Shown here: positions 7,531 through 43,600 of the stretch, one piece after another
Numbering within the stretch: position 1 is the first letter of the stretch
Layout of the letters: every line of letters begins with the position of its first letter
From: Blasia pusilla
Lineage: Eukaryota
Direction: 5' to 3'
Assembly (NCBI GenBank): GCA_050084515.1
Contig: CM114271.1
Location: 22,134,001-22,198,000, forward strand
DNA: 64,000 nt
Program-made: the position numbers and the translations under genes
Notes under the pieces: generated by a model
Databases searched by the model: none
What the model saw: only the letters and a program-made list of their open reading frames with translations
Told to the model about the DNA's origin: nothing

Positions 7531-7540
7531 AGGGGGGCGA
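7531..7540 (+). promoter_or_regulatory. Polypurine tract, copy 1
   Basis: AGGGGGGCGA directly before repeat B1. Equivalent tracts at about 25920-25928 and, on the minus strand, about 34055-34065. Confidence 0.8.
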
Positions 7541-20200: not shown

Positions 20201-21537
20201 CTACCCAATACCCGGAAATCCCTAACACGTGCACGGAAAAAGACCATGATGGGTAACCTGAAAATAATGTCGATGTTGCTCCTCAGCAACCGTAAATCTT
20301 GACCACAACTCGATTGTGAAGACAAACTTCTCCAAATAGCACGTTGTACTCCCCTGGTAGTGACGATGCTCAAATCTCCTTGATGTGCGGTGTGGGTCCA
20401 ACGATATGGTGCGGCACTAGCGGCACGAAATGGCTACAAACGGCTCGGGAATGGGGTGCGGCACTCAACGGCATATCCTCCTCAACAGTAATACAAAATC
20501 TGCGGTGAGGGTGCAGCTCCATGATAGAGATGGTGCGGTGCGGCCACGAGCAGTAGGACGCGGAAATCTCCTGCGCGTTGCGACTACGGGCTTCCACCTC
20601 AAGACATAGCAAGCCGGGAAGAGAAATGCGACCCCATCAATCCAAAAAGGTCACCGTCCAATTAACAACGGTGAAGAACGCCGTCGACGGCGGCCAACGG
20701 ACGGAGCAAGGACGGCCCCTATGGACAATGAAAGTCAATAGTAATTACAATATCTTTCATGTGGGTAAAAATGGTTCTACTTTGGCCTTATTCAAAAATT
20801 GAAAGTTCTTTGTTTTTTCCCACTCCACTAACTCCTTAAACTAAGGGTCAACTCACTAAAATTACTCACATTTAGCTTATACTCCACTAAGCCCTATAAA
20901 TATTGGGTCAACACCCACTAAATAAAGTTTCCACTCACTTTAACCTCAAGATCCTAAGTTTCACTTGTCCTTTCTCCACTAATAAAAGATATTTTTTAAA
21001 ATTTTCTACCTCACCTAAAAATTTACCAAGAATTTTGAAATTTGCTCCTTCCTCATACGGTGGCTATGGCAGCTCCACAAAAATGATCATTACTTCTTGC
21101 TCCCATGTTCAAATTGTGCATAGTTTCCCAATCTACAACATTGTTAAATCAGCTTCTTCATACAACCTTCCAATAAAAACTCACAAGGATTGTCATGCAT
21201 CCCTTCAATCTGCACTCCTACAAAAACTTCAATAGCGCTTCCGCGCTGATTTCTCCCAACAAAAATTGCAAACCTGTAAACACAACAACCAGCAAGCTAG
21301 AAGGTACTCCCAAGAGCACTAGCATGGGACAAAAAATCCCCATACTCAATTTCTAACAAAATTTTGGCAACGCTTCCGTGTGCCACTCTCCCGTACAAAA
21401 AATCATCAAAGGAATCAGCAAAATTGAGCGGCTCTTGCTCTGGTGAGCACTCCCATGAACTGCTGAATGGGGAATACAGTCCCCAACCTGCAACAAGAGC
21501 GAGTGACCAGCAAGCTCCCCCATTGAAACTCTCTTTG

Positions 21538-22046
21538 TAAATCAAGTAGATCTCTCATCAACATCTCACACCAAGCTCTCCTTGGTATACACTCTCTCTC
21601 ATGTCAAACCAAACCCACTCTCCTAATGAGAGGCTTAGGTTACACACACAAGGCAAGGAGGACCATACCTTCGCCGCCTCATGCCAAGAGGTTCAACAAA
21701 GAGAGAATGAGCTTTGAAGCTCTCTCTCTTGGAGATATACCCCCTTCCCTCTCTCAAGCTCTCTCCTCGGTAACCTATGCTTGCAGGTCACCTCCTTGGC
21801 TCTTGACTAGCTATAGCGGGTCAAAGGTCACTTCCCAAAGTGGAAAGTCAACTATACTCCAATGGAAACTTACTCGAAATAGTGAGTTTCTCTATATGAC
21901 TCCAAATGCACCAAAAAAAAGGGAAAACCTTATGTCTCAGGTTACCCGTGGCCTCAGCAGATCCTCCTCAACCTCTTGAGGCTCTTCTCTAGTATCTCTG
22001 AAGGCGCTCTACTAGATCTCGCTGATCTATCCTAAAAGTGGTGACA
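21538..22046 (-). repeat. 5' terminal repeat A1 of copy 2 (no B segment)
   Basis: Homology to A2 of copies 1 and 4 stops at ...TGATTTA, exactly where B2 begins in those copies. Confidence 0.9.
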
Positions 22047-22833
22047 CAAGACTAGTGGAGATGTTGCATGGAGAGCATGCATGTGTTAATGTCATGCCTG
22101 CCTAGAAGGATGTGCATGGCAACTAGACGGATAGGCAGATGTGTGGAGATTACCGCCCTATCAATCCGCAGACAAAGTTCAATAGGTATGCCATGCCCAC
22201 CCGTGAGGAGATCTTTGATGCTATTGGGCATGCAAAGGTCTTCAGTTTGTTAGATCTTTGAGCCAGATACCATCAAGTGCTTACCAGATTGGATGATAGG
22301 CAGAAGACGGTATTTTGGGGCATTGATCCTCACGGGAAGGATTGTTTGTACCAGTGGCTTACTATTTGGGTTAAAGAACACTCCGCTTGAGTTTCAAAGG
22401 GTTATGGATAAGATCTTGGTAGGTCTGGATTTTTCTAGATGTTATATTGATGACATCGTAGTCCTTAGCGTCACGGTTGAGGAGCATGAGCGACATCTAG
22501 AGGAGGTGCTTCGACGATTGGAGTTACATGGGTTCAAGCTACATCCATGCAAGTGCAAGTTCTTCTATGACCAGATTGAGTACCTAGGTCACACGATATA
22601 CCTAGGTGGCCTTGGTGTGCAACAGATGAAGGTAGAGGCTATTACACGCATTCCATGCCTTACAGATGTGAGTTGAGTTTTTGCATTCATGGGATTGGCA
22701 AACTTCTATCGATAGTACGTCAAGGGTTTCAGTTCGATTGTGAAGCCGTTGTCTTTGCTGACCAAGGTGGATTAGGAGTGGCAATGGGAGGATGAGTAGG
22801 AGAGAGCATTTGAGCTGCTCAAGGACACATTGA

Positions 22834-24195
22834 CACTAGTACAATACCCCCTTCTGGATGACTTTTAAAAATGACTAGATGTTACTCAAACTGGGCTTTT
22901 GTGACTAAGTAATTACTTAACCAGACTATAGTAATAAAAATTACTCCTAGTCATATAAGTTTTTATTGAAACCGAGGGTAGTCATATCTGAGTCTCATTT
23001 TTGTTACTCAACATTGTCACTAAATATGACTTCACCTAGTCATTTTTTATGACAAGGTTAAGTCATAGAAAATTACTAGACGAGTGATAAAGAATGACTC
23101 GTCTTGTCATAAAGAGTGACTGGACGAGTAATAAAGAATGCCTAGACAAGTCATAAATAATGACTAGATGATTCATTGAGAATGACTAGACGAGTCTTTA
23201 AGAATGACTAGACGAGTCTTTAAGAATGACTAGACGAGTTATTAATAATGACTTGACGAGTCAGTAAGGGTGACTACTCAAAGTAACAAATAATGACTTC
23301 ATGCGTCACAAAAGAATGACTCAGAGTCATTAAAATGACTTTTCCATGTCATTTACAATCCTGTTCACTAACAAACAATATGCAAATAACAACTATATTA
23401 GTCATTATGTATGACAGGCTTGCTTTATTGTTAACAAAAATATGTACATAAAATTGGCATTTTTGTCCATTTTGTATCCATGAATATGAATTACTCCTTC
23501 CCACCTATCCTCCCTACACCTATCACTACTTCTCTTACATCCAGGAAATGGAGATGCCATTCTATATCTATTATACAATCCTAATGCTACCAGCATCGTG
23601 TGAAAACATACAAGCACATTACTCATGTACCAACCCACCCTTGTTGTAGCATCTAATAAGATGAGTTTTTCACAGTAAAAAATCCTTATCTGTTGAAAGA
23701 TAGAATTAGAAATGCTTCTTACATCCAATTGTGGCCATAAGTCGAAAGCTACAAAGTGTATCCATACATCCTGAAATGGACTATTTACTTACATGAGAAG
23801 AATTGCCTAGTGAATTATAGTGAATGATGCTTTCTATACTAAATGGAGACTTACATTAAAATCACGCCCGAGTTCTTTGATATAAAACCTGATATTATAT
23901 AGTTTTGCAATTAAGGCCGCTCGATCAATATTTCAAAAGATTGGAACTCTCAAAATCATAGGGTAGGTAACGACGAGTCTCTATATGAAGTCATACTAGC
24001 TATCTAGTAAGCATGTTTAGAGCCTCGACCCTCTTTGTATAAGAAGTGCCTACCCTGCAATCTCCACCAAAATGCCACGGACAACTGTTCAGACAAGAAT
24101 CTCTCATCCGCCAACCTGAAAATAAAATCCAAGAAATATAATCTCTCAAAGGAGTTTGAAGCATGGGATCAACTTTGTGGTGGTAGCAATAGAAC
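22834..24195. mobile_element. Truncated CACTA (En/Spm) DNA transposon end
   Basis: Starts CACTAGTACAA, interrupting copy 4 RNase H. Dense subterminal repeats. No matching opposite TIR; right boundary approximate. Confidence 0.72.
23070..23345 (+). repeat. Tandem subterminal repeats of about 22 bp (AAGAATGACTAGACGAGTCwTw)
   Basis: About a dozen degenerate copies, near-perfect at 23179-23240. Confidence 0.85.
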
Positions 24196-26699
24196 CACCA
24201 CCTATCCTTTGGGCTTGTTGGCTATGGAGAGCCAGATTGCTGAGACTTCGATGAGGAGGTCTGATGCAAAGTCCTTAGATCGAGAGGCGGGTGAGGAGAA
24301 GATAGATGACCGAGACATTCACGAGGATGGAGTACTCTTGGAGTACCTACGTATTGGCAGCGTCGCGAGCACAATGGGCAGTAGAGAGCGGGATCGGATC
24401 CTATAGCGAGCCACACGGTTTCGGTGGGAGGGGACACATGTGTTGCGAGTTTGGGAGGATGGTAGAATACGTGTAGTGCCTCATCCTTTAGAGAGAGCAC
24501 GTTTGGTGCGTCATGCCCACAAGGAGTTTGGTCATTTTTTAGTGAAGCGGACGTACAACTTGCTCTAGATACAGTATTAGTAGCAAGGTATGGAGATTGA
24601 CATTCAGCAGTTTGTTCCCAGGTGCGTGGTTTGTAATAGGGTGTGGGCATCGTTCAATGCTCTGACTCCATAGTTGCATCCACTTTCGATCATGGGTTTA
24701 GGTTATAGATGAATTTTGGATTTTGGAGGACCCTTACCTTTCACGGAGCGCCATAGTTGTTATGTTTTGGTGATGGTCGAGCACTTCTCAAAGTGGATAG
24801 AGTTGGTTGCATTGCTTGACAAAGCGAATGAGGGAGTCACGTATGCCTTCCTAGATTGAGTGCTGAGTCATTACAACGCCCCAGATGAGGTGTTGAAAGA
24901 ACAAGGTACGGAGTTTCACAAGAGTTTCAAGCCTTGTGTGATTAGGCGCTGACTGACCACCGCACCACTTCGCGAGATCATCCTAAGGCGGATGGACTAG
25001 CGGAGAGTGTTGTACATACGGTGAAGAGAGGATTACGCAAGTATGGATTGCAGAGAGATCAACTAGGAGATTGGTACCTTCATTTTTTGTGGTTAGCGAT
25101 GGGATACACATTGAGCAAGCAGGCATCCTTAGCGCCTTTTTCACCGTACTTGCTGCTTTATGGCCGAGAGCCAGATTTACCTGTAGCCATTCGTCGAGAT
25201 GTTGGTAAGGTGTTAAACCTTGATGACCCGGATGTATGCATGGATGCAAGCATGTTCTCACACGACTGAGTTGTTTAGGAGAGTGATGCCCATGGCATTT
25301 GAGAACTTGGCGATTGCGCAACATCGAGATACTTTGAGGTATGCCACTATTTAGGAAGGTGGTTACGGCCCTACTATCCGTAGGTTTCATAAGGGAGACT
25401 ATGTCTACTTGCAATAGATGGCACCCATGATATTGGATATAATTGCACGACACACTATCTTGAGAATGCGTGACATTTTGCCATTTGGTATTCTCTTATT
25501 GGAGGAACGCGATGGTATGGTTTGAAAGGACCATGTGCGTAACTGTGCGCCATGTCACCTTCCAAACATTGACGGTACAATTGATTTGAGCTTAGCAGTA
25601 GTTCCTACAAGTTTGCAATGTATGTTGTGTGATTCCGCCCGTTGTGCAGCCACCATGCTAGTTTGTGATGGGTGTTCGAGAGGGTGGCATATGGCATATA
25701 TGTCTGACACCACCTCTCATGAGGGTTCCTCGGGGATGATGGATGTGCCCCAAATGCACATAGAGTAGGTAGTTCTAGATTTCGACTTGCGTCTATGACA
25801 TGGATGACAAGAAGGCGACATGAGCACCCGACCTTTTTGCTCTTAGCGTCCGAGAGATGTATGTCATGGTAGGTAGGAATAGATGGCTATCTGGAGTTAG
25901 AGGAACCTAACCACCAGCTAGGGGAGCAATTGAAGATATTTTGGTACTTCTCATCTCGTTGTTTGGATGCCATGAGTTAGCATGGAATCATGTGTGTTTG
26001 TGTGTATGTTTGATGACAACGATGTATGTTGTGTAGCGATGTGTATGCGCATGACAGTTGTTACGTCTCTTGGGATAGATCAACAAGATCTAGTAGAGCG
26101 CCTTTGAAGATACATGAGGACATCCTCAAGAGGTCGAGGATGACTTGCTGAGGCCTCGGGTAACGTGCGAGAGCAGGTTTCCCCTTCGTTTCGGCTCATT
26201 TGGAGCAATGTTGAGGAACTTACTATTTTGAGTAAGTTTCCATTTGTGGCATAGTTGACTTTCCACTTTTGGAAGTGGCTCTTGACCCGCTACAGCTCGT
26301 CAAGAGCCAAGGAGGTAACCTACAAGCATAGGTTATTGAGGAGAGGCCTTGGGAGATGGAAGGGGATATACCTCCAACAGAGAGAGCTTGAGAGCTCATT
26401 CTCTCTTTGTTGAACCTCTTGGCAAGAGGCGACAAGGTTATGGCTCTCCTTACCTTGTGTTTGTAACCCAAGCTTCTCATTAGGAGAGAGGGTTTGGTTT
26501 GACATGAGAGAAAGTGCACACCATGGAGAGCTTGGTGTGAGATGTTGAGAGAGATTTGATTGATTTATTGGAGATACTTTGGTACTTCTCGTCTCTTTGT
26601 TTGGATGCTATGAGTAAGCATGGGATCATGAGTGTTTTTATGTATGTTTGGTAACAGCAATGTATGTTGCGTAGCGATTTTATATGCGCACGACAAGGC

Positions 26700-27110
26700 A
26701 CTACTCAACGATAGAATACGTGGATATCATGACAAGGAGAAATATTAGTCTAGGCTTGGATTCATCTCCATTTAGAAAGCTTGATAGTGGATCCCCACAC
26801 TTTCTCCTCCACTTCACTTGAGGCTTTCCCTTTCCTTCTCTCTCTATTTCCCACAAGTACCCTAGTTTGGAGATCCTGTTGCACATTGGGAGGACCTTCA
26901 TACATAATTTGCCATGATGAATATCTTGATTCCCATTCTTTTTCTTTCATCTATCTTTTGAAAAATGCTCCATCATCCATGTGCTATGATATGTTTTCAT
27001 CAAATAGAAACAACATTTGCACTGCCATTTGCTTTATGTTTCACTTTCCACTTGTATTTCTCCCCAATATTCCTTCATGATCTTTTGGAGTTCTTTGGCT
27101 TTGGTCACGA
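26700..27110 (-). pseudogene. Possible hAT transposase N-terminal BED zinc-finger remnant
   Basis: My own translation of the minus strand: KWQCKCC..MKTYHSTWMMEHF...HGKLCMKVLP, resembling the BED spacing C-x2-C...R..H...C. Contains a stop. Confidence 0.35.
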
Positions 27111-27384
27111 CTATAAGTAAATACTATCCCCAACTAAAAAATATTGAGTAATTTGCAATAATTTTACAAGCTCAATAATTAGATATCTTGACCTATGAAA
27201 TATATGCAAACTACACCATATATTGTTTGTGAATGCTCCAATAGCAACCTTAGAACACTCGTTATGAACAAGAAAGATCAATATGCTAACCATGATAACC
27301 AAGATATCTTAAATTATCAAGGTTATCAAGTGGCAAAACATAGTCTCACTTATTAAGTTCACCTATCTACTGAAAAAAACTTAT

Positions 27385-27387
<3 letters not shown>

Positions 27388-27438
<51 letters not shown>
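27388..27438 (+). repeat. (AG)n microsatellite
   Basis: About 25 uninterrupted AG units. Confidence 0.97.
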
Positions 27439-27441
<3 letters not shown>

Positions 27442-30400
27442 GGGCGAGTTTATATAGGGGAGGATGGAAGGAAGGAAATTAACCCTTAATTTTTTTTCCT
27501 TATCTATCCCCACGGACTATTAATGCCTAAAAAAACTCCACATAAGCACGTAGCGCATCTTAATTTTTTCTCCTAATCCCAAACCTTTTTTTTAACTATC
27601 CTAACTTCCTCACCCACTTCTTTTACAACTAACCTATTCTCTAATATAACGACCCTATTCACTAATACTCTTACCTTCCCCTTTCCTCTCCATCTTTGAA
27701 TTCCACTCACGTGGCCTCAAGAACTAACCATACCTAGAGTTTCCCCTTGATTTTTGCTCACGATCCCCATACAAACCTTATGCTTAAGCCCTCATGAGGC
27801 CTCCATTTAAGCCCGCATCTAGCCTGGCCTAAGTCTAGGCGAGCAGCGAGCTTGCATATCCTGAGGTTGGGCGTGGACCCACGAGGTGACAAGGGCTTGC
27901 ACAAGCTGGCAAGGAGTCCTACTCGGGCCCATGCCAAGCTTGTGTTATCCCCACATCTTGGCTCTGTCAAACCTCCAACCCACATGCTTATCGCTCCTTG
28001 GCCCGCATAATTTGTTCAAGCCTACACCTATTCCCACGTCCAAAGCCCGCGTAGGCGACTTGGGCACCAAAAAGACCAGGGTGGGGGTCTCATTTGACAT
28101 ATATATTCCATGGATGAACTTGTTTATTTCCATGTAACCTTACCATCTCTTTAAATTTGTCGTACCAAGGAAAGTATATTATCCCTAATAAGGAAATTTT
28201 CTCATCGTTTCGAATGAAGATGCTTTGCTAGGCCTTTGAGTATGGTATGGTTGCACACCAACTTCCCCTCAATGTCAAGTGTATAGTAATCATGAAGAAT
28301 TTATTCCTAACAATAACCTCCCTCCTCATCCCCATATTAACATGTAGTACTCTCCAGCAAAATTTCTTAACCGCCCATAACAATTTCCACATTGTCCATG
28401 TTCAAGTATGCAACCAAATTCCTTGACAAGAATGAGTTTTTGGTTGTGTGAACCACACCAAAAATCTCTTCAACATTTGCTATATGTGGTTTCTGTTGAA
28501 TGGGACCCTCTTAGTTTCATTTACCTTCCTTCCTCCATTTCCTATATCCTCATTCAGACCAATGTGAGTACCCTCTGGTGGAACTATGTCCAATAGATCT
28601 AAAATGCAGATCGAAGGCCTAAACCATAACATCCACTTGCGATCCATTTGATTCATAGTTTCCATCATATTCCTCCTTCCCAAAGGTCTGCATGTTGTAT
28701 GTTGAGCAGGTTTTCTTAGTGGATTTTTAGGTTGTTCTTACTATCCCTCTTTACCACTATTTCCTCCACACAACGTGGTATTGTCACTTCAATCACAAGT
28801 TCGTCCCCTTCTATTTTCCCAAAAAAATCCTCTTCCTGGTCTTGCTTAATTAGCTATTTGATATGAATGTGCAAATGTGGTCGGCTAAGCTTTTAGTACA
28901 TCTAGTGAACATGCCAGGAATTTAGGGATGATGATTTTGGCCGCATCCACATATCCATATGGACCTCGGTATGGACTATTATTTGGGACACTGTTACGAT
29001 TGGATTTAGCAACTAGGTGTAGAACCTGCATCAAAAGACAAATAAAATCCACACTGCCATTCCACATCAGCAAGGTCTAAATCTAGCAGGGTGGCACGGG
29101 TTTGAAAAAGTTCCTCAAAGAAAATTGGTGCAAACAACTTATGCTTATTCTTACCTCTATACTTGGTGAATAAATGGACTTATGCCTATTCTCCAAAACT
29201 TCATCTAGTAGATGTATAAGCTGCATCAAAATACAATTAAAGTCAATAGTGCAAGGTCTAAAGCTAGCACTTGAGATAAATCACCCATGAGTACTCCATG
29301 GCCAATCGTATGTGCAAGGCATCAAGATGGAGTCCAAAAAGTTCATCAAAGAACAAACTACGTGATGCCCACTCCAATGTCCATGCCTTTAGGTAGTATC
29401 TCTACACCAACAAATCTAGAATTCACTCCACAGGTTTAGTTTTAGGCTTATCATTTGCTAAAGAAGTGGGAATCAAAAAAAGTGAAATCTACCGAGGGAG
29501 AATCATTGTGAAGAAAATCTACAAGGTGAGACATGAACAACCTTCTAAGATTGTCACCAAGTGCGAGCTAATTGCATTATGCTATGGCTTTGGAAGGAAG
29601 ATAACTTGGACATAAAAATCCGAAACCACTTTTACATTTACATATGTTACATATTTCTAAGCTCCTTGATATCAAATTTCATCCATGTGACTTAATGATA
29701 GTTCTTTGAGCTACGTTAAGTTCACTAGCGATTGATTTTAGTGACGAGTCAATTCTGAGTGCATTCTTTGGATTAAGAGTAACTAATCACCATCTACCTA
29801 AGCTTACAAGAGCATACTTGTGTGAAGCAAACATCCTCGTCTATAAAGTTGATTGCTTCAAGATGACAAATTAATCTTCATGTGTCCAGAAGTTAACAAG
29901 AAAATCCAAATGCACACAATGAGCTAAAACCAAAACTCTTATTTTTCTCCACGGCACTTGAATGGGTTGAAATATTTTTGACCTAGAGCATCTTTTAGTT
30001 GAATGTGTAGTTCTATGGTAAAACTCTCCAAACTTCAAGTATGTTTATGCTAATCTTGAGAGATATATGGGTTACCAACCATAAGTAGAATTTGTCTCCA
30101 AAGATGTGGATAATAGTTACAAATTTTCTCCTTCTCATGAATTTTGATTAGTATTTCTTTGTAGATTTCAGTATAGCCCTTCTAGAATACATTGGAGCAC
30201 TCTTTTTAAGGTTCCAAGTATCATAGAGGGGTAGGATCTTTGGCTCTCAAAGGGATGGGAGGCTTGGTTGAGCTCTCTTCCTAAGGATGTCTATGAGCTT
30301 TAGTGGTGCATACATTTAAGTTTTATACTTGTGTGAGCTTTGAAGACTAGATAAACTATTTATTTCTTGTATGATTATGGGATTCTTTTTGAGAGTATGT

Positions 30401-30691
30401 TAGGTTATAACTTGGAAACCCATCTTAAGGATTCTCTTTCTACAAAGTGGAGGAGATTTTCTTCATGATTTTGGTGTCCAAGTGGCATGAAAGAAATGGA
30501 AAACATCAAGCTTGAAGTATTCTAAGTGTTGGCTTATGTTGGAAGGATGGGAAAAGAAAATTTTACCAAATGCAAACAAAATGGCATGATCTCGATTGCA
30601 TGGGAAAGAAATAGAAATAGAAATTCACTAGAAAATAGAAAATTATTGATTTACCGAACATGAAACGGATGAATATTAAATTTATCAAAAT

Positions 30692-31132
30692 AAATCTATA
30701 TTATTATGGGAGAGTGCTTTTTTATTTTCAAACACCTCTCACCTCTATGTTTGACACGTGGCACGTGTGCGGCAAGAAAAAAAATTAGAATTTGTGTACA
30801 ACATCATTAATCTCTTCCCCTCACGAACTACACACTTACATTAGTCCCTTCCCTTCACGAGCTATTCATTAATAAAAACTCTTAAACACTTTTTCATTTT
30901 CGCACATGGACACTTTACTAATTTTCTTTTAAAATACTAGTGGATAGCTATGCACAAGAATGATGGAAAATCTTTTTTTTATTAAAATACTAGTGGGCAG
31001 CCATGCACAAGAATGATGGAAAATCTTTTTCTTACTGCCCGGAAAAAAAAACATTTTGTTACGACTAGGTTTTCGCGTGTAAAAGAAGATGTTCACAAAT
31101 AAAAAAGCACTCCCCATTACTACTATAGATTT
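30692..31132. mobile_element. Small non-autonomous element(s): inverted ~30-bp ends and duplicated Helitron-like 3' ends
   Basis: AAATCTATAtTAtTAtgGGagAGTGCTTTTTT at 30692 is inverted at 31101-31131. Tandem ~52-bp unit TACTAGTGG.AGC.ATGCACAAGAATGATGGAAAATC at about 30935 and 30987. Confidence 0.5.
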
Positions 31133-34100
31133 AACAATAGGTCCCGAGAGCAATATACATTATCATGCATGATATTAAAATTTACCAGAGAGAAATGTAA
31201 GGAATCAGTTCGTCACTAGGTCCGCACGTTGGTCTCCTAACAGACTCGCCGAGCTACTGTCGCAGTGCCGCCACCCGAGCATTGCCACGTAGCAGCGCAA
31301 CCACGGTGCCACCTCCTTCCCACGTCTCCCATGAGTCCTGACCCGCCCTCGATGCAACTCCCTGAGTTCCCGGAAGGTCTGCAACCCTCCTGTCGGTTTC
31401 CCGTCCCGTGAAAGCCCCGCGGGAAGACGCCGACGGTTACCAAATATGAGTTATTCTCCTTGCTAGGAACTTTCGCCGACTAAGTCTTACCGGCACCCAG
31501 TCACTTTCAGGAATATAACGACCGGGACGGCCGGCTACAAGAACCACATGTTTCGTCCTTTCGGAATCCGTGCCGGAGCTTGGAAGCCGCGATCGGGACT
31601 TATCGTTTTCTCCCGGCTAGCTGAACATAGAAGTCCGACTCTAGCGGACTATGGGATGGAGACGTCAGAAGTTTAGGTGGATGGATTCATCCCGCACAGT
31701 CGCATGACCAGGTATCTGGCCAGCTTTCGGTCTTGGAGCCTTCGACCCTTGCGCCTTGGTGATTGAATGTACCTACACGCAGGGAATTTATCTTGTCAGC
31801 CTCGCGTTACGTAGGTACGGTAGCCCCCCACAAGAAGGGCCAGGGATTCTATGTCAGTGTGGACCCCGCCATTTCAGTAAAGTACTCGTTCTTTACTCAA
31901 ATTCCTTCCCATCTTTGGGGACGTGATTTGGACCTTTACTTTTCGTGCGACAAAATATTCGAAGTTCGAACGGATTCCATTCGCCGTGCTTCGTCAAGTC
32001 GATGTAAAATGCTTCTGTTGCCCCGGCGTTGGCTACGCTTTAGTGCGCCGTGGGACACTACCGTTAGTGTCCCACAACCGGTAGATGCACACTCGTGATC
32101 CTTTAGTGGGCGATCTGTTTCATATCTATTTCGTAATCTTATCACAATTAGTCTAACTAGTCGTGAACTAATACTTGTTATACTTCTTTTAAAATTACAC
32201 CAGAGAAGAATTTGTGTGGAATGCATCCTGAATATCTTTTTAATAACACTAGTGAGAATGCGTCAATTTTTAGTACATAAAACTCCCTCGTTACTCAGTT
32301 TGGGCTTTTCTCTTTTCATCGAGGAGTGGGAAGTTTACACACGTCGAGGGAGAACCTTTAATTAGGTCTCTGCCCATTGGAGATAATGAAACAGAGTGAT
32401 AGAAACAACTTTTTTGTACTGAATTGAGTTGTTTGGGTGGTATCTCGAACAGCAGGCAGCTTGCTCGAAGGTGAAAGTTGAGTTGTTCTTGCAACGTAGT
32501 ATTGGAAACCTTGTAAGTATTCAAACAATGAGCACCTTTCGTCTAGAACTACCGCCCAAAGCTTCGTGATTCATTGGCCTCAATTGGCTGGAAGCGTAGA
32601 CTTTTACCGTTGCACGGGCATTCTCACTCTAGTAAGAATGGCCGTGCGATGCACCGGCATCAAAATTTAGCATATACAAAATTAATCATATCAATTTTTT
32701 TTCAATGGATGAAGTATTACAAAGTCTAAAAAGCATGCCAATATAACACTTGACACATGTAATGTTATTTTAATTTTAATTTAGCACTTCATTATATACA
32801 ACATTCCTAGTGTAAATACCTATTTTGTTAATAGCCTTTTCATTATCTGTCATAATATGAATAGAATTCCTCGAGCCTACTCTTGACAAGGCAACATACA
32901 ATTGCCCATGAGAAAATACTGGATTAGGCAAGTAGATACCAACTCTATCTAATGTTTGACCTTGAGACTTGTTAATCGTCATTGCAAAAGCAGGACGTAT
33001 AGGAAATTGAAATCGTCGCAAATCAAATGGTAGGCAAGAATCAGACGCAATCAATGGAATGCGTGGAATGAAAACTCGAGCTCCGATGTTTTTTCTAGTG
33101 ATGATTTTTGCATCTATAAGATGTCTACTAAAGCCAGCTATCACCAGCCGAGTCTCGTTTGCTTGTCCCTTGGCTCCATTCATATTCCGTAATAGCATTA
33201 TCGGAGCTCCAATCTTCAAAGTCAAACAATGAGGTGGCAGTCTAGATGGTAAACATGTGTTCAAAAATTCTGTTGGATAAACAAGTCTCATCTCATCGTC
33301 GGAAACGGTATCAGCACTCAAGAAAGTATGCTCTTGCAAAAACAATATAAATCATTAATGATAAGAGCGATGATAGAAAAATGTAGCAATAGGTAATGAA
33401 AATATAATAATGATATTCAAGAACATAAATATTACCTCTCCTGGAAATCGAGACATGATTTCCGCATTTATAATATCTGTCGTGCGAATCCACATCGTCA
33501 TACAACATACATCGCTGACATACCATACTCACATATATACATAACATAGACGAGAGTATCCACAAACACAAGTGTACCACAATTGAAATCCGTGAAAGAC
33601 CTATTGTCATAAAACACGTTTACAATCACATACAATCGAGCCAAACCCATTCCACGATGGGAGAATCTAGGTCAAAGCTTGCGGGAAACACCATAGCCAA
33701 GAGCTCTACTCACTACCAAGGCTAACTCCCAACGCAACACGCTCAACTCAAAGAATCGTTGTTGTTCTTTGAGTGCACTCCACCTTATATCCTCCAACCT
33801 AAGAGCAGGCCCTCTTTGGGAAAGTCACCCCAACGAGTAACCCCAACCCTATGTATGGAACCGCATCTCTACCAAGCCACTACGGTCCTACATAAGGAAT
33901 GGCCTCTACTAGCACACTATACTCTCGACATAATCCGTATGGTCATGACAATTGTCGTGCGAATCCACATCATCATACAACATACATCGACATATCATAC
34001 TCACATACATACATAACATAGAGGCGAGTATCCACAAACACAAGTGTACCACAACTCGCCCCCTAATCGGCGGTTAGGTCCCTCTAACTCCGGTAGCCCT

Positions 34101-34224
34101 ATACATCTACTACATGCTATACACCTTCTTGGGTGCCGAATCGAAGGCCGGGTGCTAGGTTGCCCCATCATTAGTCGCACATCGTAATCCATATCATGCA
34201 AAGATCAAGTCATCTACCTCTCCT

Positions 34225-35500
34225 AAGTACATCGAGAACAAACCCACCTTCCAGAGGAACAACATCCATACGTGAGTCAAACACATCATGTGCCAACCCC
34301 TAGAACACCGATCACACACCAACATACGGGCTGCGTTACCAGCAGACCCACACAACATGCACCTCAAGCTAGCATGTATCATGGCTAAGCTTGGGTCAAC
34401 AGTACCATCCACATTTGGAAGATGACATGGCGCACAATTACGCACATGGTCCTTCCAAACAACTCCATCACGACCCTCCAACATGAGAACTCCAGAAGCT
34501 AACACCTCGCGCACTCGTAAAATAGTGCGGCATGCCGTCACATCCAACGTTGTCGGTGCAACTGCTGCAAATAGACATAGTCCCCACATGGAACCTCTGA
34601 ATCGATGGTCGATAACCTCCACCCGAATGGTTGCATACCGCAACGTATCCTGTGTTGAGCAATGGCAAGATTCTCAAAGGTCGTTGGCATAACTCTCCGA
34701 AAGAGCTCCGTCCGCTAAGAACACACCCTCATCCACATCTCGGGTCATCAAGGTTCACCACCTCACTAGACTCCCACAATTGTTCTTTGGCAAGTTTGGA
34801 TCTCGGCCGTATAACAGAAAATAAGGTGAGAAGGAAGCCAAGGATGCTTGGCGATCGAACCTATACCCCATGGCTAACCATGGCAACTCGAATATCCAGT
34901 CTCAAGATGCCCCTTCAGAGGCCATACTTGCGCAATGCCCTCTTCACCGTCTGAACCACACACTCGGCCAAACCATCGCCTCTGGATGATCTCGAGGCGT
35001 GGTCCGATGATCAATCAACGCCTTGTCACACAAGACCTGAAACTCACCTTGAAACTCTGACCTGGTCGGTCAAGCACTTCATTTGGTGCACCAAAATGAC
35101 TAAGCACTCTATCCGAAACGCATCGCCGTTCCTCACTTTCCTTGTCCGTAATGCCACCAACTCAATCCACTTGGAGAAGTGTTCCACCATCACCAACACA
35201 TATCGATGATGTAAATACCAGTCCATGATATGATCCTCCATAAAGTCCACACTCCAACGGTAACCCAACCCCATAATAGGCAAGGGGTGTAATTGTGGTG
35301 TAGGGGCATTAAATGATGCCCTCACCCGGTCATAAACCATACAACGTGACACCAAGCTGCTGCACCTGAGTATGCATGCCACGCCACCAATCTTGGCCAA
35401 GGAGTACGCTATACGACGCTTTACCCCAAAATGTCCCAACTCCTCATGGGCATGTCGCACAATGCGCTCTCTCGAGCCAAATGTGGCACTACTCGTACTC
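34225..35500 (-). pseudogene. Integrase plus PHD finger (copy 3)
   Basis: RHAHEELGHFG, WSVDF, VEHFSKW, TDQ. PHD CMLCGSAGNAARMLVCDRCSRGWHMMC. Confidence 0.9.
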
Positions 35501-36232
35501 TACCATCCTCCCACACGCGGAGAATATGTGTTCCCTCAATCGATACCTCTTAGCACGTTGAAGAACACGGTCTCGCTCCTTGGCACTCACTATGCCCGGA
35601 ACCCTCTTGGTCCGTAGGAACTCCAACACCAACACATCATCATGAATATCACGCTGATCCGTACACCATCTCCAACCTTAGGATCGAAGGTGGCCATCTA
35701 TCCTCGACTAGAGTAAGATATCATGTGGTCCTCCATACTAGAGTCCACACCGACCAACATAAAAGGCGGATGCATGCCAACCTGGCACCATTTCCTCATC
35801 AACCTCGCCATGCCATCTAGCCCGTTGTATCCTCTTGGCTAGTACATGGGTTCCTACTCAACCCATCAAAGCATCAAGGTTGGCAACTCAGGTCTATGTA
35901 CCACCGGAAGTCATACTCTGTAAGATAAGAGCCCACCTGCAAGCTTCCCCTCGTCAAAGCTTGTCCGACTCGATCAACCACTTGAGCACTCTCCCTCATA
36001 TGTGGTGATCGATAGAAAGGACAAACTCCATGTGGGTGCCAAACAAGTAACACCTAAGTGCAATAGCCTCCACCTTTGCTTGCTGAACTCCCAAACCACT
36101 TGGATAGATCACATGACCCAAGTACTCAACATCCTCATGGAAGAACTTACACATCAGTACTCGGATAAACACTCCCAAACCATGGAAGAACTTTCAACTT
36201 TCATGGGATCAAAACCATGAGCTTTCAACCGC

Positions 36233-36718
36233 TCAAAACCATCTGCAAATGTATCGATGCTCCTCCACCGTGTTCTTGAACACCAAGATATCATCAATGT
36301 AACACCGAACAAAATCCAACCCCGCTAGGATCCTGTCCATCACTCTTTGAAACTCGGCAGGGGCATTCTTCAACCCAAAGGGTAAGAATTTCCACTGGTA
36401 AAAACAATCCTTGCCATGAGAGTTGACACCCAAAAATGTTGTCTTGGCCTTGTCACTCTCCCAAATCGGCAATTGATGGTATCCTGCCCGAAGATCCAAA
36501 GTACTGAAAATCTTTGCCTGTCCCACCACATCAAAGATCTCCTCAGGTGTAGGCATGGCATACCTATCGACCTTGGTTTGCCGATTAATAGGACGGTAAT
36601 CTCCACACATCCGCCTATCCATGTAATTGCCATGCATATCCTTTTTAGCAGGCATGATAGTGGCTGATGCATACTCTCCATGCGACAACTCCACTAATCC
36701 AGCCTCCAAAAGGTCCAA
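36233..36718 (-). pseudogene. Reverse transcriptase core (copy 3)
   Basis: RMCGDYRPIN, LDLRAGYHQ, LPFGLKNAPAEFQ, CYIDDILVF. Confidence 0.95.
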
Positions 36719-36819
36719 CGTCCTACTCTAAGGATGCAAAATACTACTCTCCTCGCCCCCAGCCGATGCCTCTACCGTCCCGGTAGCCATCGAGCTCATT
36801 ACAAGGGGTGGAAGACCCA

Positions 36820-37800
36820 CAGACATAGTCCGAAGTCGACGCTGCTCGGCCATACCAAGACTCAAAATCCAAGTCAAACAATTCAGGTCCATGGCCTGAC
36901 CCAACACATGACGTCGTGAAGCCTCAGAAATAGAAGCAACCATTGTCACACCAGTAGCAAATCCCATCGCACGCTCTCTCTCATCAACATTAGGCTCCAC
37001 CAACTGTCGCACATGAGAATCCCATACAAGCCCCGGACCACCTTCCCTGTAGGCATATGACGAGGGAAAACTCACAAATGTGGGTAGTGCATCCTAGGCT
37101 GGCCCACACGGTTCACCACTGCCATGGGTGACCGATCAATAACCCTCACCACTTGAGAAAGTCGCCCAAGATATCAAGATACTATCCATTGTAAGGCGAG
37201 GATCATTTGCCTTTGCATCATATGCTCGATGTAGAACCTCCTAGGCAACAAGTTTGTCCACCACAAGCGTGGGCGATGTGCCGTGAGCCAACTCGTTGCA
37301 TCCAACAACACCGCTGGTCCAATCCAAGACCGCACCTCATGAACACTCGCCATCATCCGGTCCGAGTACCCAACAATGGAACATTCTCGGAATGTAAGCT
37401 AGAGCACGTGCTCGATGAACTGAAGATGTCGTAACACCCGTAACATCTCCCAAAACAATCGAGACCTAGGGTCATGTAATCCCTCACCACGACCAAAGAC
37501 GTGTATGACCCCACGATATGGCCATCCAAAGCAATCACCAAATCCAGAGGACCAACCCTCTCAAGGTCCTGCGCCCCCAACAATGCAATGTGTGATGGTA
37601 AAACGCTTTGGTACCCTGAATAGCTGATGGCGACAACAACTCAAGATATCTCGCATCAATCGACCAATATGTCGGGATGAGACTCTGGGCCGTCTCATCT
37701 CGCTCCACATACACGTATCTCCTCAAGACAGAATACCGGCTGCAACATCTGACCAAACCAAGTGCTAATCCCACCAAAGAGATCTAACACACAAATGCCC
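36820..37800 (-). pseudogene. C5 DNA methyltransferase domain (copy 3), frameshifted
   Basis: VLDLFGGIST, YVYVERD, GPLDLVIA, ENVPLLG, AHRPRLWWTNL, ERERAMGFATG, SRRHVLGQAMD. Confidence 0.9.
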
Positions 37801-38064
37801 TCCAGCAGATCTTTGCCATACAATGGGTGTAGTATCCAAAGGGGATAACCTAATGGACCAGAAGTAAGAGTCCGCGTGGGGCCTCCTCTTCCTCGTGAGG
37901 TATAACATGACCTCACACCAAGCCTCTGCACTAGGCGTCGCCTCTTGCCGTAGTGCACCGCCTAAACTCCAAAGTGGCACATCCAACGATGAGGATGCCC
38001 TTTGCTGCAAAAATAGGGACCTCCTCTACCTCCTCATGCACGGGAGAATCCATAAGCAGAAACA

Positions 38065-39009
38065 TTACCCTCCAAAAGTCTCTGGCCAAGTGACTACTCC
38101 ACTAAAACCAGCCACAGATGCTAACACTCTTGGGGAAGACCCTCCTGGTCGAGCCCCAGAAATAAATCTCACAGGAACTTGGCTCATACGTCTATCCTCG
38201 GATTTCCAACCAGGTCTATAAGATGCTGTCTCAGTCCAGTAATCCATCTGAAAACCCATCAGGTACAATACTGCTCCTCCAACTAGTACATCATACGACT
38301 CGGCTGATGTGACTACCGCAGATACTCCCAACCGGGAGCTATCAGTCGCATGATCTGGTCTCAACTGTACAGAAAACTTCTCCCGTGTCATGAATTGAGA
38401 CCTATCATTGGCTCCTCCAAGTGATGTTTGAATCTGGAATGGGCAAGGCTCAAGCTCTGACCTCCGAATACCCAAACCAATACATGCCGCCTTTCCCAAC
38501 ATCAAAGGTTGGGCACCAGAGTCTAACAAGACTCTATCTGGTCTATACACCTGTCCTATAGGACTCACCAATCGGAAGATCCCACTCCGGTTGTCCAACA
38601 TACATACACCAAGTGTAAGCCTCTCACGATCAATGGCTGGCCGGGCTGGTAATGCATCCATCTTCGTCGCTGTTGCCTGCCAAGTAGCACTAGTACTCAA
38701 TGCTACACTTGACATAGAGGGTCGCTCCACCGCAACATCCTCATCCACCTCAACACGTGTAGCAATAACACCCCCACGTTCACACAACGTGGCTGCTAGC
38801 TGAAATACAGGAGCTAAGTCAACTCCTAAAGCCATCAGCTCCGTGGCCGAAAATAATGGGGATCCCAACACTGAAGTTGCTATCCGCAATACTGCACTGG
38901 ATGCTGCATCTGTGTCTACTACACGCAATGTAGATGCCTCAGTCCCCACTGTCGGCTCAATAGGCTGCATAGGAACCATGGATGGAGTCCTAAGCACCTC
39001 AGACAACAA
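38065..39009 (-). CDS. Retrotransposon aspartic protease-containing ORF (copy 3)
   Basis: VLLDSGAQPLMLG (D-S-G active site) and YDVLVGGAVL; 314-aa open frame. Confidence 0.85.
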   Translation of the reverse strand: MLSEVLRTPSMVPMQPIEPTVGTEASTLRVVDTDAASSAVLRIATSVLGSPLFSATELMALGVDLAPVFQLAATLCERGGVIATRVEVDEDVAVERPSMSSVALSTSATWQATATKMDALPARPAIDRERLTLGVCMLDNRSGIFRLVSPIGQVYRPDRVLLDSGAQPLMLGKAACIGLGIRRSELEPCPFQIQTSLGGANDRSQFMTREKFSVQLRPDHATDSSRLGVSAVVTSAESYDVLVGGAVLYLMGFQMDYWTETASYRPGWKSEDRRMSQVPVRFISGARPGGSSPRVLASVAGFSGVVTWPETFGG

Positions 39010-39043
39010 GAATGACTAGGGAAGCCTAGCCTGCCTCCCAACC

Positions 39044-40666
39044 TCACCCCTCTGTGGGTCCAACTCCACAGTAGCACCATGTGGCTCGACCGCTCGAGTG
39101 GCTCCTCTCGTAATGGTGATGCCTCAACTTTGTCTTTGCTTTTCGCCATATAAGAGAGATCATCCCCTCCATAAGAGGTGGAAGCCCCTGCTCCCGAACT
39201 GATCTATCTTTGGATACCGACCATAGTAGCCAACTCGCTCCAATCTGCTCAATCCTGGCAGCCATAGTTGACTCTGTCGTAGTGGTAGGGGTAGCCACCG
39301 TAGGCTCTCCAACCACTGGTCCACCTCTACCACCCCTACCACCTCTACCACCTCGGCCTCTCGGAGCTACTCCACCACGGCCACGGCCTGATCTCAACTC
39401 TGGATGAAGATCAAAGCAACGCTCTCGAGGATGACCGGGTCTCCCGCAATGATCACACTGAGTTGGGGCCGACTGAGGCCCATCCTCCAAAGTCCGTCTC
39501 CCATCCTCTTGGCGACAAAACTTCCTAACATGATCACCTCCGCATGTTTAACATGACTGTCCTTGCTGCGGGGCAGCAAATGAAGGCAATGGTCTCTGCG
39601 CAAGTGTCCCTCTAGGACTTGACTGAGGTCGTATGTACCCCCCACGACTCCCACTACTACTACCACCACCACTACTACGAGACTGTGAGGTGGGCGGCTG
39701 AACACAAGAAGTAGTAGTTGTATCCCTACTGAAAGCGGATGTCACCACTCTCTCCTTCACCATGTTAAGCTCAATCTTCTCAGATAGAGCAAACACATGG
39801 GTCAATGTGGGTGAATCATCACTCATAAGAGTAGCATCACGTACCCTACGACGCAAATCTCTATCCAAGATCCCATACCAAAACTGGACTGCCTGATCCT
39901 CAATCACTCCCTGGGTAACTTAAATCAAGCGTCGCATACGAGTGTATGCCTCACGAAGACTCTCACCAGTCTTTTGCTCAAAGTCCTGAAGATTCCTCAA
40001 CTTCTCCGTCTTCACTCCCTGATAGTTCTTCTTCAACCTCTTGAAGAACTCTGCAACCGGGCTGAACGATGGTGGGGCACTAGTACCTCCACTAGTACCC
40101 CCACTAGTACCTCCACTGGTATCCCCACTCCAGCTCGTACTCGTACCACTCAACGTCGGGCTGGCTGGCATAGTAGGAGCACTACTACCAATACCACCAT
40201 GGGTGATAGACACATAGCCTGGACACCAATATTGTCTCCACGCCTCAATCTCAGCAACATGGTCTTTCCTAAACTCATGGTAATCATCCATGGGTGGTCC
40301 TTCAAGTCTTTGAAACAACCCCTTCAAGCCAAGAAGGGTGTAAACAACGTGGCGTTCATAACATCGCATATCACACCACGTATCAAACTCCTGCATAAAG
40401 TCCTCCAACTCAATGGTGCCCACTGCACCCGAGTATCGTCGTGGGCCCTTCATGGCCCCATATCCACCGTCCATGTCCCAAATCAATGGAGCTGCAACAC
40501 TCGATAACAACGTAGAAGACTCGGTGTTTGGAACACCCTCGTCCTCCTCTTCATCAACTGTCGAAAGTGGAAAAGGTAGCCGATACCTAAATCCACTCCG
40601 TGTGAAACCACCACTGTCCGCACCACGGTCCCCAACCAGACCACCCGACAGCTCCGTGATGACCAA
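39044..40666 (-). pseudogene. gag (copy 3)
   Basis: YSGAVGTIELEDFMQEFDTWC, FEQKTGESLREAYTRMRRL, CCHC knuckles, RGG repeats. Confidence 0.8.
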
Positions 40667-43600
40667 CGCCGATGCCGCACCACCACTAAGTAACCAAGTG
40701 ACGTCGATGTCGCTATACTATTCTAGCTCTACTAGCTATGGGTGTAGGCAACCTAACTTTTCATCACCACAAGAAGTCTCCCACGGTCTACTCGTCATCC
40801 CTCCAGCCTCACTACCGGTAGCACACAGGAGTAACACTACTCTGGAAATCAGCGTCAACCCTAACAATGGGCGCACAAGCAAGAAGCACCGATGGAGGGG
40901 ATCCAAACACAGGAAGTCCAACGACAACCCTCCAATCGCAAATGGAAATCAAGGTAACATAATCCACCAAACGTGGTGCCCCCTGAATCCACAAAACCCA
41001 CCACACAATTCTAACGCAATAGCTACTCCACCGCGGGTCGATAACGTGCTAGTCGAACTCGCAGTACCTGAAAATATCACCTGCATGGAGAGGCTACACC
41101 GTACTATGCGCTAGAGGTACATCAACCAAAAACCTGAGATGCATAAAGCGCCTAACACATCTCCGAACAACACCAAATGAGCTACAACAGTGTGTACACT
41201 GGCATAGTTAAGAACTCAGCAGTTAAGCGTCCTCCAGGCATAATAGCCCAAAGATGGGTGACCAGTTATGCAACACTCAAATCCCAAATCCTGCAAAAAT
41301 TGCCCCACGCCCAAGCAAGCAAGCTTGCTTGCTTGCTCCTTGCTCCTTACTCCGCCTCTCACGCCCACTCGCCCCGAGCTACCACGAGTTGAATCAAATC
41401 TGTTTCGACCAGAATTCAATTGACCACCATAGCTATCTCTCCACAAAAAATCAGCTACAACCGAGCTCTGTACTCCGAGCTAAACATCAGACAAACTTGT
41501 TGTCCATACACCTCCAGAATCGCAAATCCGACAACGCTTCCGCCAAGTTCCATGCAAGCACAAATCCGCAACGCTCCACACACTCGAGTAGATAGCTTCA
41601 CATGAGATCACAATACAATTAGCAACAGGAACCTCTCACCCGATCTGGATGAACTTCAACAGAGTTTCCGCACTCCAAGCTCTCCACATCAGAAAACCGT
41701 CGAACACTAACTAGAATCTTCAATCCTTGATAATTTCCAACTCCCTTGACGAAATCCGGCGATCTAAAGCGCGTTGGAAAGCTCTCAGCATGGCGCTTCT
41801 TTCCCAACCAACACCGCATCAGATTCACACCTCCAAAATAGGCCACAAGCCACAAACATCCACGGCTGAGTACACAATCAGCCCTAACCAGATCCTACTG
41901 ATCTACAATCGAAGCTACCATCGATCTACTGCAGTTCTTTGAGTGAAATCCCTGAAAGACCTACTGTCATAAAACACGTATACAATCACATACAATCAAG
42001 CCAAACCCACTCCACGATGGGAGAATCTAGGTCGAAGCTTGCGGGAAACACCATAGCCAAGAGCTCTACTCACTACCAAGGTTAACTCCCAACGCAACAG
42101 GCTCAACTCAAAGAACTGACTGTTCTTTGAGTGCACTCCACTTTATATCCTCCAACCTAAGAACGGGCCCTACTGGGAAAGTCACCCCCAACTGAGTAAC
42201 CCCCAACCCTATGTATGGAACCGCATCTCTATCAAGCCACTATAGTCCTACATAAGGAATGGCCTCTACTAGCACACTATACTCTACGACATAATCCGTA
42301 TGGTCATGACATATCCACGATTGTATTCTTGGTTGACAAAATGGATGTACCCCTCAAGAAATCAATGTCACTCCACTTATTAACATCGTGTCCATAAACA
42401 ACGTCAATGAGATCATTCATCCTTGTCATTTTTACAATTATCGCATCCGGAACTTCTATAAAATCCTCTCCAAGGTCCAAATGTAATGGCACTCAACCCT
42501 CTCCTATCTCTAATAACCACGTTGCAAACGCTTCTTGCTCTTCTCGTGCATATCCTACGAAAAATATAAGATCAAGAAATGAGTACATATTAAAAATTTT
42601 AAAAAAACACATGAAATGAAAAAGGAAAAATATTAGGTTAATTCTTAAATACCTTGTAAAGTATTAACTCTCATGTTGCTAGTGAGTTTCAATACTCTCA
42701 CGTCAGACCAAATAAGAGATCTCCTCAATGTTGCACGCACAATTGTAGCACGATATCCACGACGAACAACTGGAGGAAGTTGTCAAAAGTCACCACCGAA
42801 TAAAATGATCTTCCCCCCAAAAGGCAAGTCTCGTAATCGACTATCCATCAAACCCATGATATCTTGGAAAGTACGATTAACGACCTCGAATGCATGACGA
42901 TGGGTCATAGGAGCTTCATCCCACACGATCAACTTCACCTTTTGTATAAGGCGGGCCATATGACTATTGATCGATAGGCTAGAAAATAGATAACAAAATA
43001 ATATGTGAGGAACATTTATGAAGGATAAATCTAAGAATATATCAATAATATGCATGCCATAATTATAAAGTAAAAGGAACCAAAATCTTAAATCTAGACG
43101 TACTTGCAAGTGGAGCTTTCATGTACTTGAATAGGAATCTTGAATCGAGAATGAGCAGTACGACCTCCATCCAATAATAAAGCGGAAATTCCTGAAGATG
43201 CAAGTGCAAGAGCTATATGACCCTCGCTTCGTACCATTGCAAGAAGAAGGTTGTACAAAAAGGTTTTTCCCGTTCCGCGAGGACCATCGATAAAGAAATT
43301 TTTTTCCTAAAAATCCATATTTTTAGTGACAAAAATGCACTTTAAAAAGAAAAAAACTTAAAGAGATTTAAAGAGTAAAAAAGTCATCTTAAAATTTACT
43401 ATGCATAATATCCACTTACAGAAGGTGGCGCATCTTGTAAGACATCGCGAAAAGCATTACAAATAACTTCCCAAACAGCTCGTTGTCCATCATTTAAAGA
43501 TATCTCTCTTGCTCTCACACGTTCACAAAGCATATCATGATCGTAGCAGAGCTCTTCCTCTTCTAGACGCGAAATAGATAAATTACGAGTTTGGAAATCT

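Follow-up and report, generated by a model that had tools for sequence, protein, structure and literature searches.

A Ty3/gypsy-type retrotransposon family of Blasia pusilla with integration ends abutted inside its repeat may insert from an end-joined intermediate

A Ty3/gypsy-type long terminal repeat (LTR) retrotransposon is present as four degenerate copies and a solo repeat in a 64,000-nucleotide stretch of the Blasia pusilla genome (assembly GCA_050084515.1, contig CM114271.1, positions 22,134,001 to 22,198,000), the whole of which is called the window here. The element has the arrangement A–internal–B–nn–A–B, with nn standing for two spacer nucleotides. It is well supported by the anatomy of the element that, by the logic of reverse transcription, its LTR is B–nn–A, and that the ends used for integration are internal to this LTR and abutted. 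We further propose, with slightly more confidence than doubt, that these elements represent a lineage whose integrated form is a circular permutation of the reverse transcription product, generated by ligation of the end of A to the start of B and by cleavage of an internal palindrome. In the textbook view, LTR retrotransposons and retroviruses insert linear DNA whose ends are made by reverse transcriptase (RT), and circles are dead ends. The family described here separates two functions: the ends made by RT (B-start and A-end) are never the integration ends, and the integration ends are abutted as a palindrome within the repeat.

The block B1–nn–A2–B2 (repeats are numbered from the 5′ end) was found by self-BLAST and repeat finding at the 3′ end of a long element at all three places noted in a preliminary description of the window, and the same searches located A1 at the 5′ end of copy 3 and of the nested copy R (Table 1). 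The split of the repeat into A–internal–B–nn–A–B, as given in that description, holds both here and in relatives recovered from metagenomes. Copy 3, on the minus strand, is the complete copy of the window. The others are sister-subfamily copies that form a nest, with copy 1 (plus strand, ending at 8314, its 5′ end beyond the window edge) inserted within copy R (minus strand) and copy R within copy 2 (plus strand, 22047-26694). Copies 1, 2, and R share ~85% identity with each other and ~75% with copy 3, and stops and frameshifts are abundant in every copy of the window. Copy R is also interrupted by a Ty1/copia element (11496-17139) with 186-bp LTRs (11496-11681 and 16954-17139) and matches to copia gag and an SH3-like integrase, which carries the solo A|B unit. 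B is shorter than A throughout (102–128 versus 367–517 nt in the window, 113–176 versus 291–341 nt in the metagenome loci). The A pair and the B pair have diverged to a similar extent within one element (identities of 93.0%/92.4% in copy 3, 92.1%/93.8% in metagenome locus L029, and 91.8%/95.5% in locus L070), which dates both to the insertion.

When metagenome contigs were scanned with an alignment of the C5 cytosine DNA methyltransferase (DNMT) domain, 80 related loci were obtained. Complete A1–internal–B1–nn–A2–B2 elements are present in six of these (L022, L029, L064, L065, L070, and L072) and B–nn–A or B–nn–A–B blocks in five more (L003, L018, L063, L068, and L080). The relatives comprise one group near copy 3 and one distant group, in which the DNMT is 37–40% identical and the domain order is unchanged (DNMT–RT–RNase H, then rve–PHD). 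Sequencing runs were also compared as Logan contigs, a type of data in which transcript starts and ends, complementary DNA (cDNA) ends, and circles are not visible. A one-off rearrangement, or a solo LTR nested beside an element, that was then spread by segmental duplication could be imagined for the window taken by itself, which is a dense nest of old copies that are all degenerate. This reading is already contradicted and we give it next to no credence: the flanks are unrelated and the target-site duplications (TSDs) different among 12 complete 3′ ends and 22 5′ ends, all distinct, which represent three subfamilies from at least two organisms, the family is present at very high depth in a DNA run, and its primer-binding site (PBS) covaries between subfamilies, as described below.

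Fourteen B–nn–A junctions were found (3 in the window and 11 in metagenomes), 13 of which are distinct as L063 and L064 are the same. In all 13 (3 and 10, respectively), which span two groups, one of them with two subfamilies, the spacer is exactly 2 nt long and lies between ...ACA and T(G/A)T.... One contig from a related organism (X3), with A-start/GC/B-end, is canonical too. The preliminary description had reported GACA-nn-TGT with two spacer bases at three places of the window, all of which read exactly so, and had held that variable spacer length would refute its model; the length is invariant. This spacing is not due to chance, because the outer, TSD-bearing ends independently define B-end and A-start, yet the same ends sit 2 nt apart internally. 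The spacer letters are GC in five of the distinct junctions, AC in three, AT in three, and GT in two. All four types are purine–pyrimidine and are separated from GC by transitions only, and with a GC spacer the core reads CAGCTG, the cytosines of which are in CHG context. Both hypervariable junction positions (the spacer and the base at A|B) are in this context, and transitions (A>G, T>C, C>T, and G>A) dominate the copy-versus-copy differences across window positions 25500-42500 in the sequencing runs, an excess that fits deamination of methylated cytosines. Since the spacer variants are transitions of GC and transitions dominate the differences among copies, the spacer is probably a GC that is passed on from copy to copy and altered by deamination once a copy is dead, rather than letters added in each cycle.

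The outer ends of the insertions are A-start (TGTC) and B-end (GACA), flanked by a 4-bp TSD. It is perfect in seven of nine cases (GATA for copy 3, AGTA for the solo A|B unit, TCTC for L022, AAGG for L029, GTGT for L065, GGTC for L070, and TGTG for L030), while three of four bases match in L064 and L072 has none. The empty site is represented by contigs in two DNA runs that connect 33472 to 42311 and skip 8838 bases (5 bases of ambiguity), i.e., the 8834-bp element plus one TSD. The TSDs at A-start and B-end show that insertion of the DDE-integrase type took place exactly there. TG...CA ends with a short TSD are as in Ty3/gypsy elements and unlike the TSD-free DIRS order. Ty3/gypsy elements also have two identical full LTRs, one per end, with the PBS behind the 5′ LTR and the polypurine tract (PPT) ahead of the 3′ LTR, whereas here the 5′ end has only A and the PPT abuts B, not the TG end. 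Other divisions of the repeat were ruled out. A cannot be the LTR by itself, since B2 falls within the TSDs and the solo unit consists of A|B. An LTR of the form A|B, which would make B–nn–A a ligated circle junction, conflicts with 5′ ends that never have B and with the positions of the PBS (at A-end) and the PPT (at B-start). A solo LTR inserted beside an A–internal–B element was rejected because the 4 nt before A1 do not recur after B1.

A G-run PPT lies immediately before B1 in all three window copies and in all ten metagenome loci where the sequence there was read. Right after A1, 10–16 nt are complementary to a site within A, 107–163 nt before the A end, and are not tRNA-like. In the copy 3 group CTCAAAGAACT(G/A...) pairs with ...AGTTCTTTGAG (a match of 12 nt in copy 3 and of 16 nt in L029/L026), in the copy R subfamily ACAAAGAGAG pairs with CTCTCTTTGT, and in the distant group TCTAGAAAAACT pairs with AGTTTTTCTAGA, so the PBS and its partner site covary across three subfamilies. 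The observed 12- to 16-nt matches were reached by 0–1 of 2000 shuffles of A (0 of 2000 for the 12-nt match of copy 3). More decayed copies have a match of 9–11 nt, which 8–24 of 2000 shuffles reach, or none; for several of the latter, the A-end coordinate used was a few bases off. A TATA box is located 27–34 nt upstream of the self-primer site in all three groups, and transcription most likely starts ~30 nt downstream of this box inside A. Judged from the sequence, the pairing and the TATA spacing together are the signature of Tf1-type self-priming from a putative transcript start. In the copy 3 group (A1 42119-42131; A of L029), a copy of the PBS sequence, CTCAAAGAAC, precedes the self-primer site, making a hairpin in A that the distant group is without. 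The preliminary description had placed the PPT against the start of B and the primer site against the end of A, and both placements were borne out, the second as a putative self-priming site instead of a tRNA site.

Pfam matches of the open reading frame (ORF) pieces include Retrotrans_gag with CCHC knuckles, RVT_1, RT_RNaseH, Integrase_H2C2, rve, and a PHD finger, which occupies the C-terminus of the integrase in place of a chromodomain; an aspartic protease motif (DSG) is present as well. The order gag, RT, RNase H, integrase is that of Ty3/gypsy (Metaviridae-type) elements, and because of its gag/RT/RNase H/rve domain set the element is Ty3/gypsy-type with a DDE integrase. When copy 3 was read through in three frames (X at stops), Pfam matched RVT_1 and PHD only, and the separate ORF pieces gave more. 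The integrase ORF of L070 matches the integrases of Ty3 (7q5b) and prototype foamy virus (PFV; 3l2q), and its PHD finger matches WSTF-type fingers. No tyrosine-recombinase domain (Phage_integrase) was matched by Pfam in the ORFs of the window, in those of L070 and L022, or in the proteins P0039 and P0040. PF00145, the DNMT domain, was matched in L070 and, within the window, in copy 1, copy 3 having a C5-DNMT-like stretch. The DNMT of copy 1 shares 56–62% identity with Marchantia polymorpha and Calypogeia fissa proteins, and there are weaker matches in Sphagnum; these are the nearest named matches and point to a bryophyte-like host. In pol, the DNMT lies between protease and RT (window 3322-4062, plus strand; L070 9833-12373). 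The more distant relatives P0039 and P0040 have the order RT–RNase H–DNMT–integrase–PHD, and the DNMT thus occurs at two positions among related elements. A run guessed to be RNA covers internal parts of the element at low depth and is uninformative on expression.

The proposed cycle would begin with the first 10–16 nt of the transcript pairing with the site directly after A1 and priming the minus strand, as in Tf1, while plus-strand synthesis would start at the G-run beside B. Because the minus strand would then start at the A end and the plus strand at the B start, the standard scheme would give a cDNA with B–nn–A as its LTRs (B–nn–A–PBS–internal–PPT–B–nn–A) and blunt ends at B-start and A-end. 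The preliminary description had already proposed such a cDNA with the integrase-type ends internal, and the positions of the PBS at A-end and of the PPT at B-start support it. Since the genomic form is a permutation of this cDNA, it would need joining of A-end to B-start and a double-strand cut at one CA-nn-TG. The ligation, most simply in a 2-LTR circle, would create the A|B junction. Integrase would then cut 3′ of CA on both strands within the templated palindrome ...GTCACGACA-GC-TGTCATG... of the upstream LTR and leave recessed CA-3′OH ends, each with a 5′ overhang of 2 nt as in processed retroviral DNA; on these overhangs we agree with the earlier proposal, from the geometry of the palindrome. 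Insertion of the linearised molecule with a 4-bp stagger would give A–PBS–internal–PPT–B–nn–A|B.

The ligated junction would have A-end set by the PBS and B-start set by the PPT, and 10 of 13 distinct A|B junctions consist of precisely these ends with 0–1 nt in between, transitions allowed. The other three have small insertions or replacements. In L022, 21 nt are added, the last of which are the final letters of the PPT. The solo unit is longer by 1 nt, and in L072 one base is missing and a G from the PPT side is present. Their resemblance to end-joined LTR–LTR junctions is suggestive only. Replication of the DIRS/PAT kind would instead inherit A|B by copying, from a read-through RNA spanning A1 to B2 with template switches that bridge B1–nn–A2, and integrase would trim near-terminal junctions. 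Such a cycle matches a layout that equals the split direct repeats outlined for DIRS-order elements (PMC8969392, PMC5890265), it would explain the fixed polarity, and most A|B junctions are uniform within a group. We nevertheless think it quite improbable, as a minus strand primed at A-end never copies B2 of the RNA, so that under the standard rules A|B would not be inheritable and would have to be ligated in each cycle; furthermore, tyrosine-recombinase domain matches are missing from the proteins listed above and TSDs are present.

Integration from a circle led the preliminary description to predict two alternative products. The first, A–B–nn–A–internal–B, did not turn up: B–nn or A|B–nn is found upstream of A in 0 of 22 distinct 5′ ends (26 ends before merging L026 = L029, L044 = L045, L072 = L073, and L030 ~ L078). 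The second, repeat-free A–internal–B, exists as a form, since the 16 distinct 3′ ends comprise 12 with B–nn–A|B and 4 with B only (L015, L025, L030, and L056); these counts omit L003, which is cut by its contig end, the rearranged L021/L024, and L037/L040, which have a partial A and then B. Its one complete example, L030, looks like a later deletion. It has its 5′ flank in common with L078 and its 3′ flank with L080 (B–nn–A–B), and for a site shared in this way a B1xB2 deletion is simpler than direct integration of a repeat-free molecule. The flanks of L030 and L080 are 95–99% identical and their interiors only 91.4%, with divergence falling with distance from the element, a pattern that is not fully explained. 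In L021 and L024 (6086-6325), an inverted PPT–B fragment stands in place of nearly all of A1, the last ~14 nt of A being kept, and both were treated as a rearranged copy.

Several points weigh against integration from a circle. A symmetric 2-LTR circle cut at random at either junction is contradicted by the absence of A|B–nn–A–internal–B, so that an extra polarity rule must be assumed, and the circle model leaves the strict polarity unexplained. The circle, the linear cDNA, and the transcript ends are all deduced, none having been observed, the PBS and PPT assignments come from sequence logic only, and all copies analysed are degenerate. To our knowledge, no Ty3/gypsy integrase has been demonstrated to cut internally at a distance of more than 100 bp from the nearest DNA end. 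The comparison of junction micro-heterogeneity suggested in the preliminary description yielded indels as in end joining at 3 of 13 A|B junctions; the difference from 0 of 13 at B–nn–A is not significant and most A|B junctions are precise, so these indels do not establish that A|B is remade in each cycle. The circle route put forward there is the simplest fit but unproven, and its symmetric form is contradicted.

The use of the upstream junction only may be kinetic. After the second strand transfer, the upstream LTR would need only a few hundred bases to be copied, whereas the downstream LTR would stay single-stranded until the plus strand has crossed the element; the upstream LTR would then be double-stranded long before the downstream one, and a single intasome might form there. 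The same timing would suit a variant that starts from linear cDNA, in which integrase makes a double cut in the upstream-LTR palindrome, A-start and the B-end of a 105–176-bp stub stay together within a single intasome until both are inserted, and the host seals A-end to B-start by end joining. Its product, TSD, and A|B features are the same as with a circle, so it fits equally well, the polarity would follow if the upstream LTR is finished first, and B is always the shorter piece. This variant is indistinguishable from the circle model with the present data. It implies a chromosomal double-strand break at each insertion, retention of the stub has no support in the data, and we regard it as unlikely. 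The preferred reading, in which the integrated form arises by permutation of an end-joined cDNA, would, if true, make an end-joined intermediate obligatory for a DDE-integrase retroelement, with the old ‘circle with two LTRs’ route as its natural and only path, and would provide a natural system for studying internal palindrome cleavage by integrase. DIRS-type split direct repeats would then follow topologically from junction-directed integration rather than being a property of tyrosine recombinases. Programs that search for LTRs on the assumption of two identical ones will mis-annotate such elements, which are very abundant in the source genome and occur also in Marchantia, Calypogeia, Sphagnum, and moss-type metagenomes.

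Table 1. Features of the element copies in the window (positions count from the first letter of the window; sequences in the sense of the strand given)
Feature	Position	Strand	Basis or remark
Copy 1, DNMT domain in pol	3322-4062	+	PF00145, E 1.6e-9
Copy 1, PPT	7531-7541	+	
Copy 1, 3′ end	7540-8314	+	
Copy 1, B1	7540-7667	+	
Copy 1, junction GACA-AC-TGTC	7664-7673	+	
Copy 1, spacer AC	7668-7669	+	
Copy 1, A2	7670-8186	+	
Copy 1, B2	8187-8314	+	
Solo A|B unit (TGTC...GACA)	14077-14551	+	inside copia element
Solo A|B unit, TSD AGTA	14073-14076 and 14552-14555	+	
Copy R, PBS ACAAAGAGAG	21529-21538	-	complementary to 21696-21705
Copy R, A1	21539-22046	-	
Copy R, self-primer site CTCTCTTTGT	21696-21705	-	
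Copy R, TATA-like box	21734-21741	-	
Copy 2, PPT	25920-25930	+	
Copy 2, 3′ end	25929-26694	+	
Copy 2, B1	25929-26056	+	
Copy 2, junction GACA-GT-TGTT	26053-26062	+	
Copy 2, spacer GT	26057-26058	+	
Copy 2, A2	26059-26566	+	
Copy 2, B2	26567-26694	+	
Copy 3, 3′ TSD GATA	33474-33477	-	sequence
Copy 3, whole, A1-PBS-internal-PPT-B1-nn-A2-B2	33478-42311 (8834 bp)	-	self-BLAST
Copy 3, B2	33478-33582	-	self-BLAST
Copy 3, single junction base between A2-end and B2-start	33583	-	self-BLAST
Copy 3, A2	33584-33950	-	self-BLAST
Copy 3, perfect palindrome GACAATTGTC	33947-33956	.	sequence
Copy 3, spacer AT, centre of the palindrome (proposed integrase attachment site)	33951-33952	.	sequence
Copy 3, B1, terminus ...CGCACGACA	33953-34054	-	92.4% identity to B2
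Copy 3, PPT AGGGGGCGAG, abuts B1	34055-34064	-	sequence
Copy 3, internal region: gag (CCHC), protease (DSG), C5-DNMT-like stretch, RT, integrase core, PHD finger	34057-41931	-	Pfam and translations
Copy 3, PBS CTCAAAGAACTG, directly 3′ of A1	41932-41943	-	complementary to 42107-42118
Copy 3, A1, start TGTCATGACC	41944-42311	-	93% identity to A2
Copy 3, self-primer site CAGTTCTTTGAG inside A1	42107-42118	-	12-nt complement of PBS
Copy 3, TATA box inside A1	42141-42149	-	motif
Copy 3, 5′ TSD GATA	42312-42315	-	sequence

Around these copies, a Pif1-type (Helitron-like) helicase fragment (32776-33351, minus strand) adjoins copy 3, and a 2062-nt contig of the run guessed to be RNA covers 32654-33203 at a depth of ~1600, far above the neighbouring sequence. 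The only clear coding signal outside transposons is a 204-aa ORF (50522-51136, plus strand) with plant-type leucine-rich repeats (LRR_1 and LRR_8). The longest open frame of the window (45807-47297, minus strand, 496 aa) has no Pfam match at E<=0.1.

The layout itself is already in print. DIRS-like repeats (A–coding–B–A–B) combined with Gypsy domains are described for KnitGypsy-Dnmt3 of Klebsormidium nitens (de Mendoza et al. 2018, PMC5890265, Fig. 4c legend), and the window family equally has a Gypsy polyprotein with a C5-DNMT domain and DIRS-like repeats; the likeness is one of domain content and repeat layout. The main text of that paper does not give junction anatomy, TSD, PBS/PPT, or mechanism, and a 2026 preprint mentions ‘Gypsy-DNMT3’ of streptophytes in a passage that does not discuss the repeats. 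In the literature searched we found no account of junction, TSDs, priming sites, or mechanism for split-repeat Gypsy elements, though the supplements of PMC5890265 may say more; as far as this literature goes, the mechanism implied by the anatomy is unrecorded.

Tf1/Sushi elements are reported to self-prime and the plant Tcn1 clade is predicted to do so, as summarized in PMC6317226. There, too, the PBS lies directly after U5 and is complementary to the transcript start, which in the window family is a predicted one; those elements have ordinary identical LTRs and a chromodomain, whereas the repeats of the window family are permuted and its proteins include a PHD finger and a DNMT. The integrases of PFV and HIV-1 have been described to cleave the palindromic LTR–LTR junction of 2-LTR circles (PMC1180852, PMC1905944), an internal cut at a palindromic CA...TG junction that likewise gives processed ends. 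In retroviruses the palindrome is made by ligation of the RT ends and the circle route is at most accessory, whereas in the window family the palindrome is templated within each LTR and the ligated RT ends form the separate, uncut A|B junction. Only an analogy can be drawn to the IS3 family (IS911), in which a DDE enzyme cuts and inserts abutted ends that a short spacer separates on a circle, since these are bacterial DNA transposons that do not use reverse transcription and whose circles contain one junction each.

The split-direct-repeat elements of the DIRS order (PAT, Ngaro, and SymbioDIRS-Dnmt3) share the arrangement A1–internal–B1–A2–B2 and integration at the abutted B|A of a joined intermediate. 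They use a tyrosine recombinase and make no TSD, according to the account in PMC8969392, whereas the window family encodes a DDE integrase and combines TGT...ACA ends and a 2-nt spacer with TSDs of 4 bp. We put it at an even chance that this streptophyte lineage of DDE-integrase retrotransposons obligatorily integrates from an end-joined LTR–LTR form, its integrase cutting a templated palindromic attachment site within the LTR in a restriction-like manner, and has converged on the topology of DIRS, PAT, and Ngaro.

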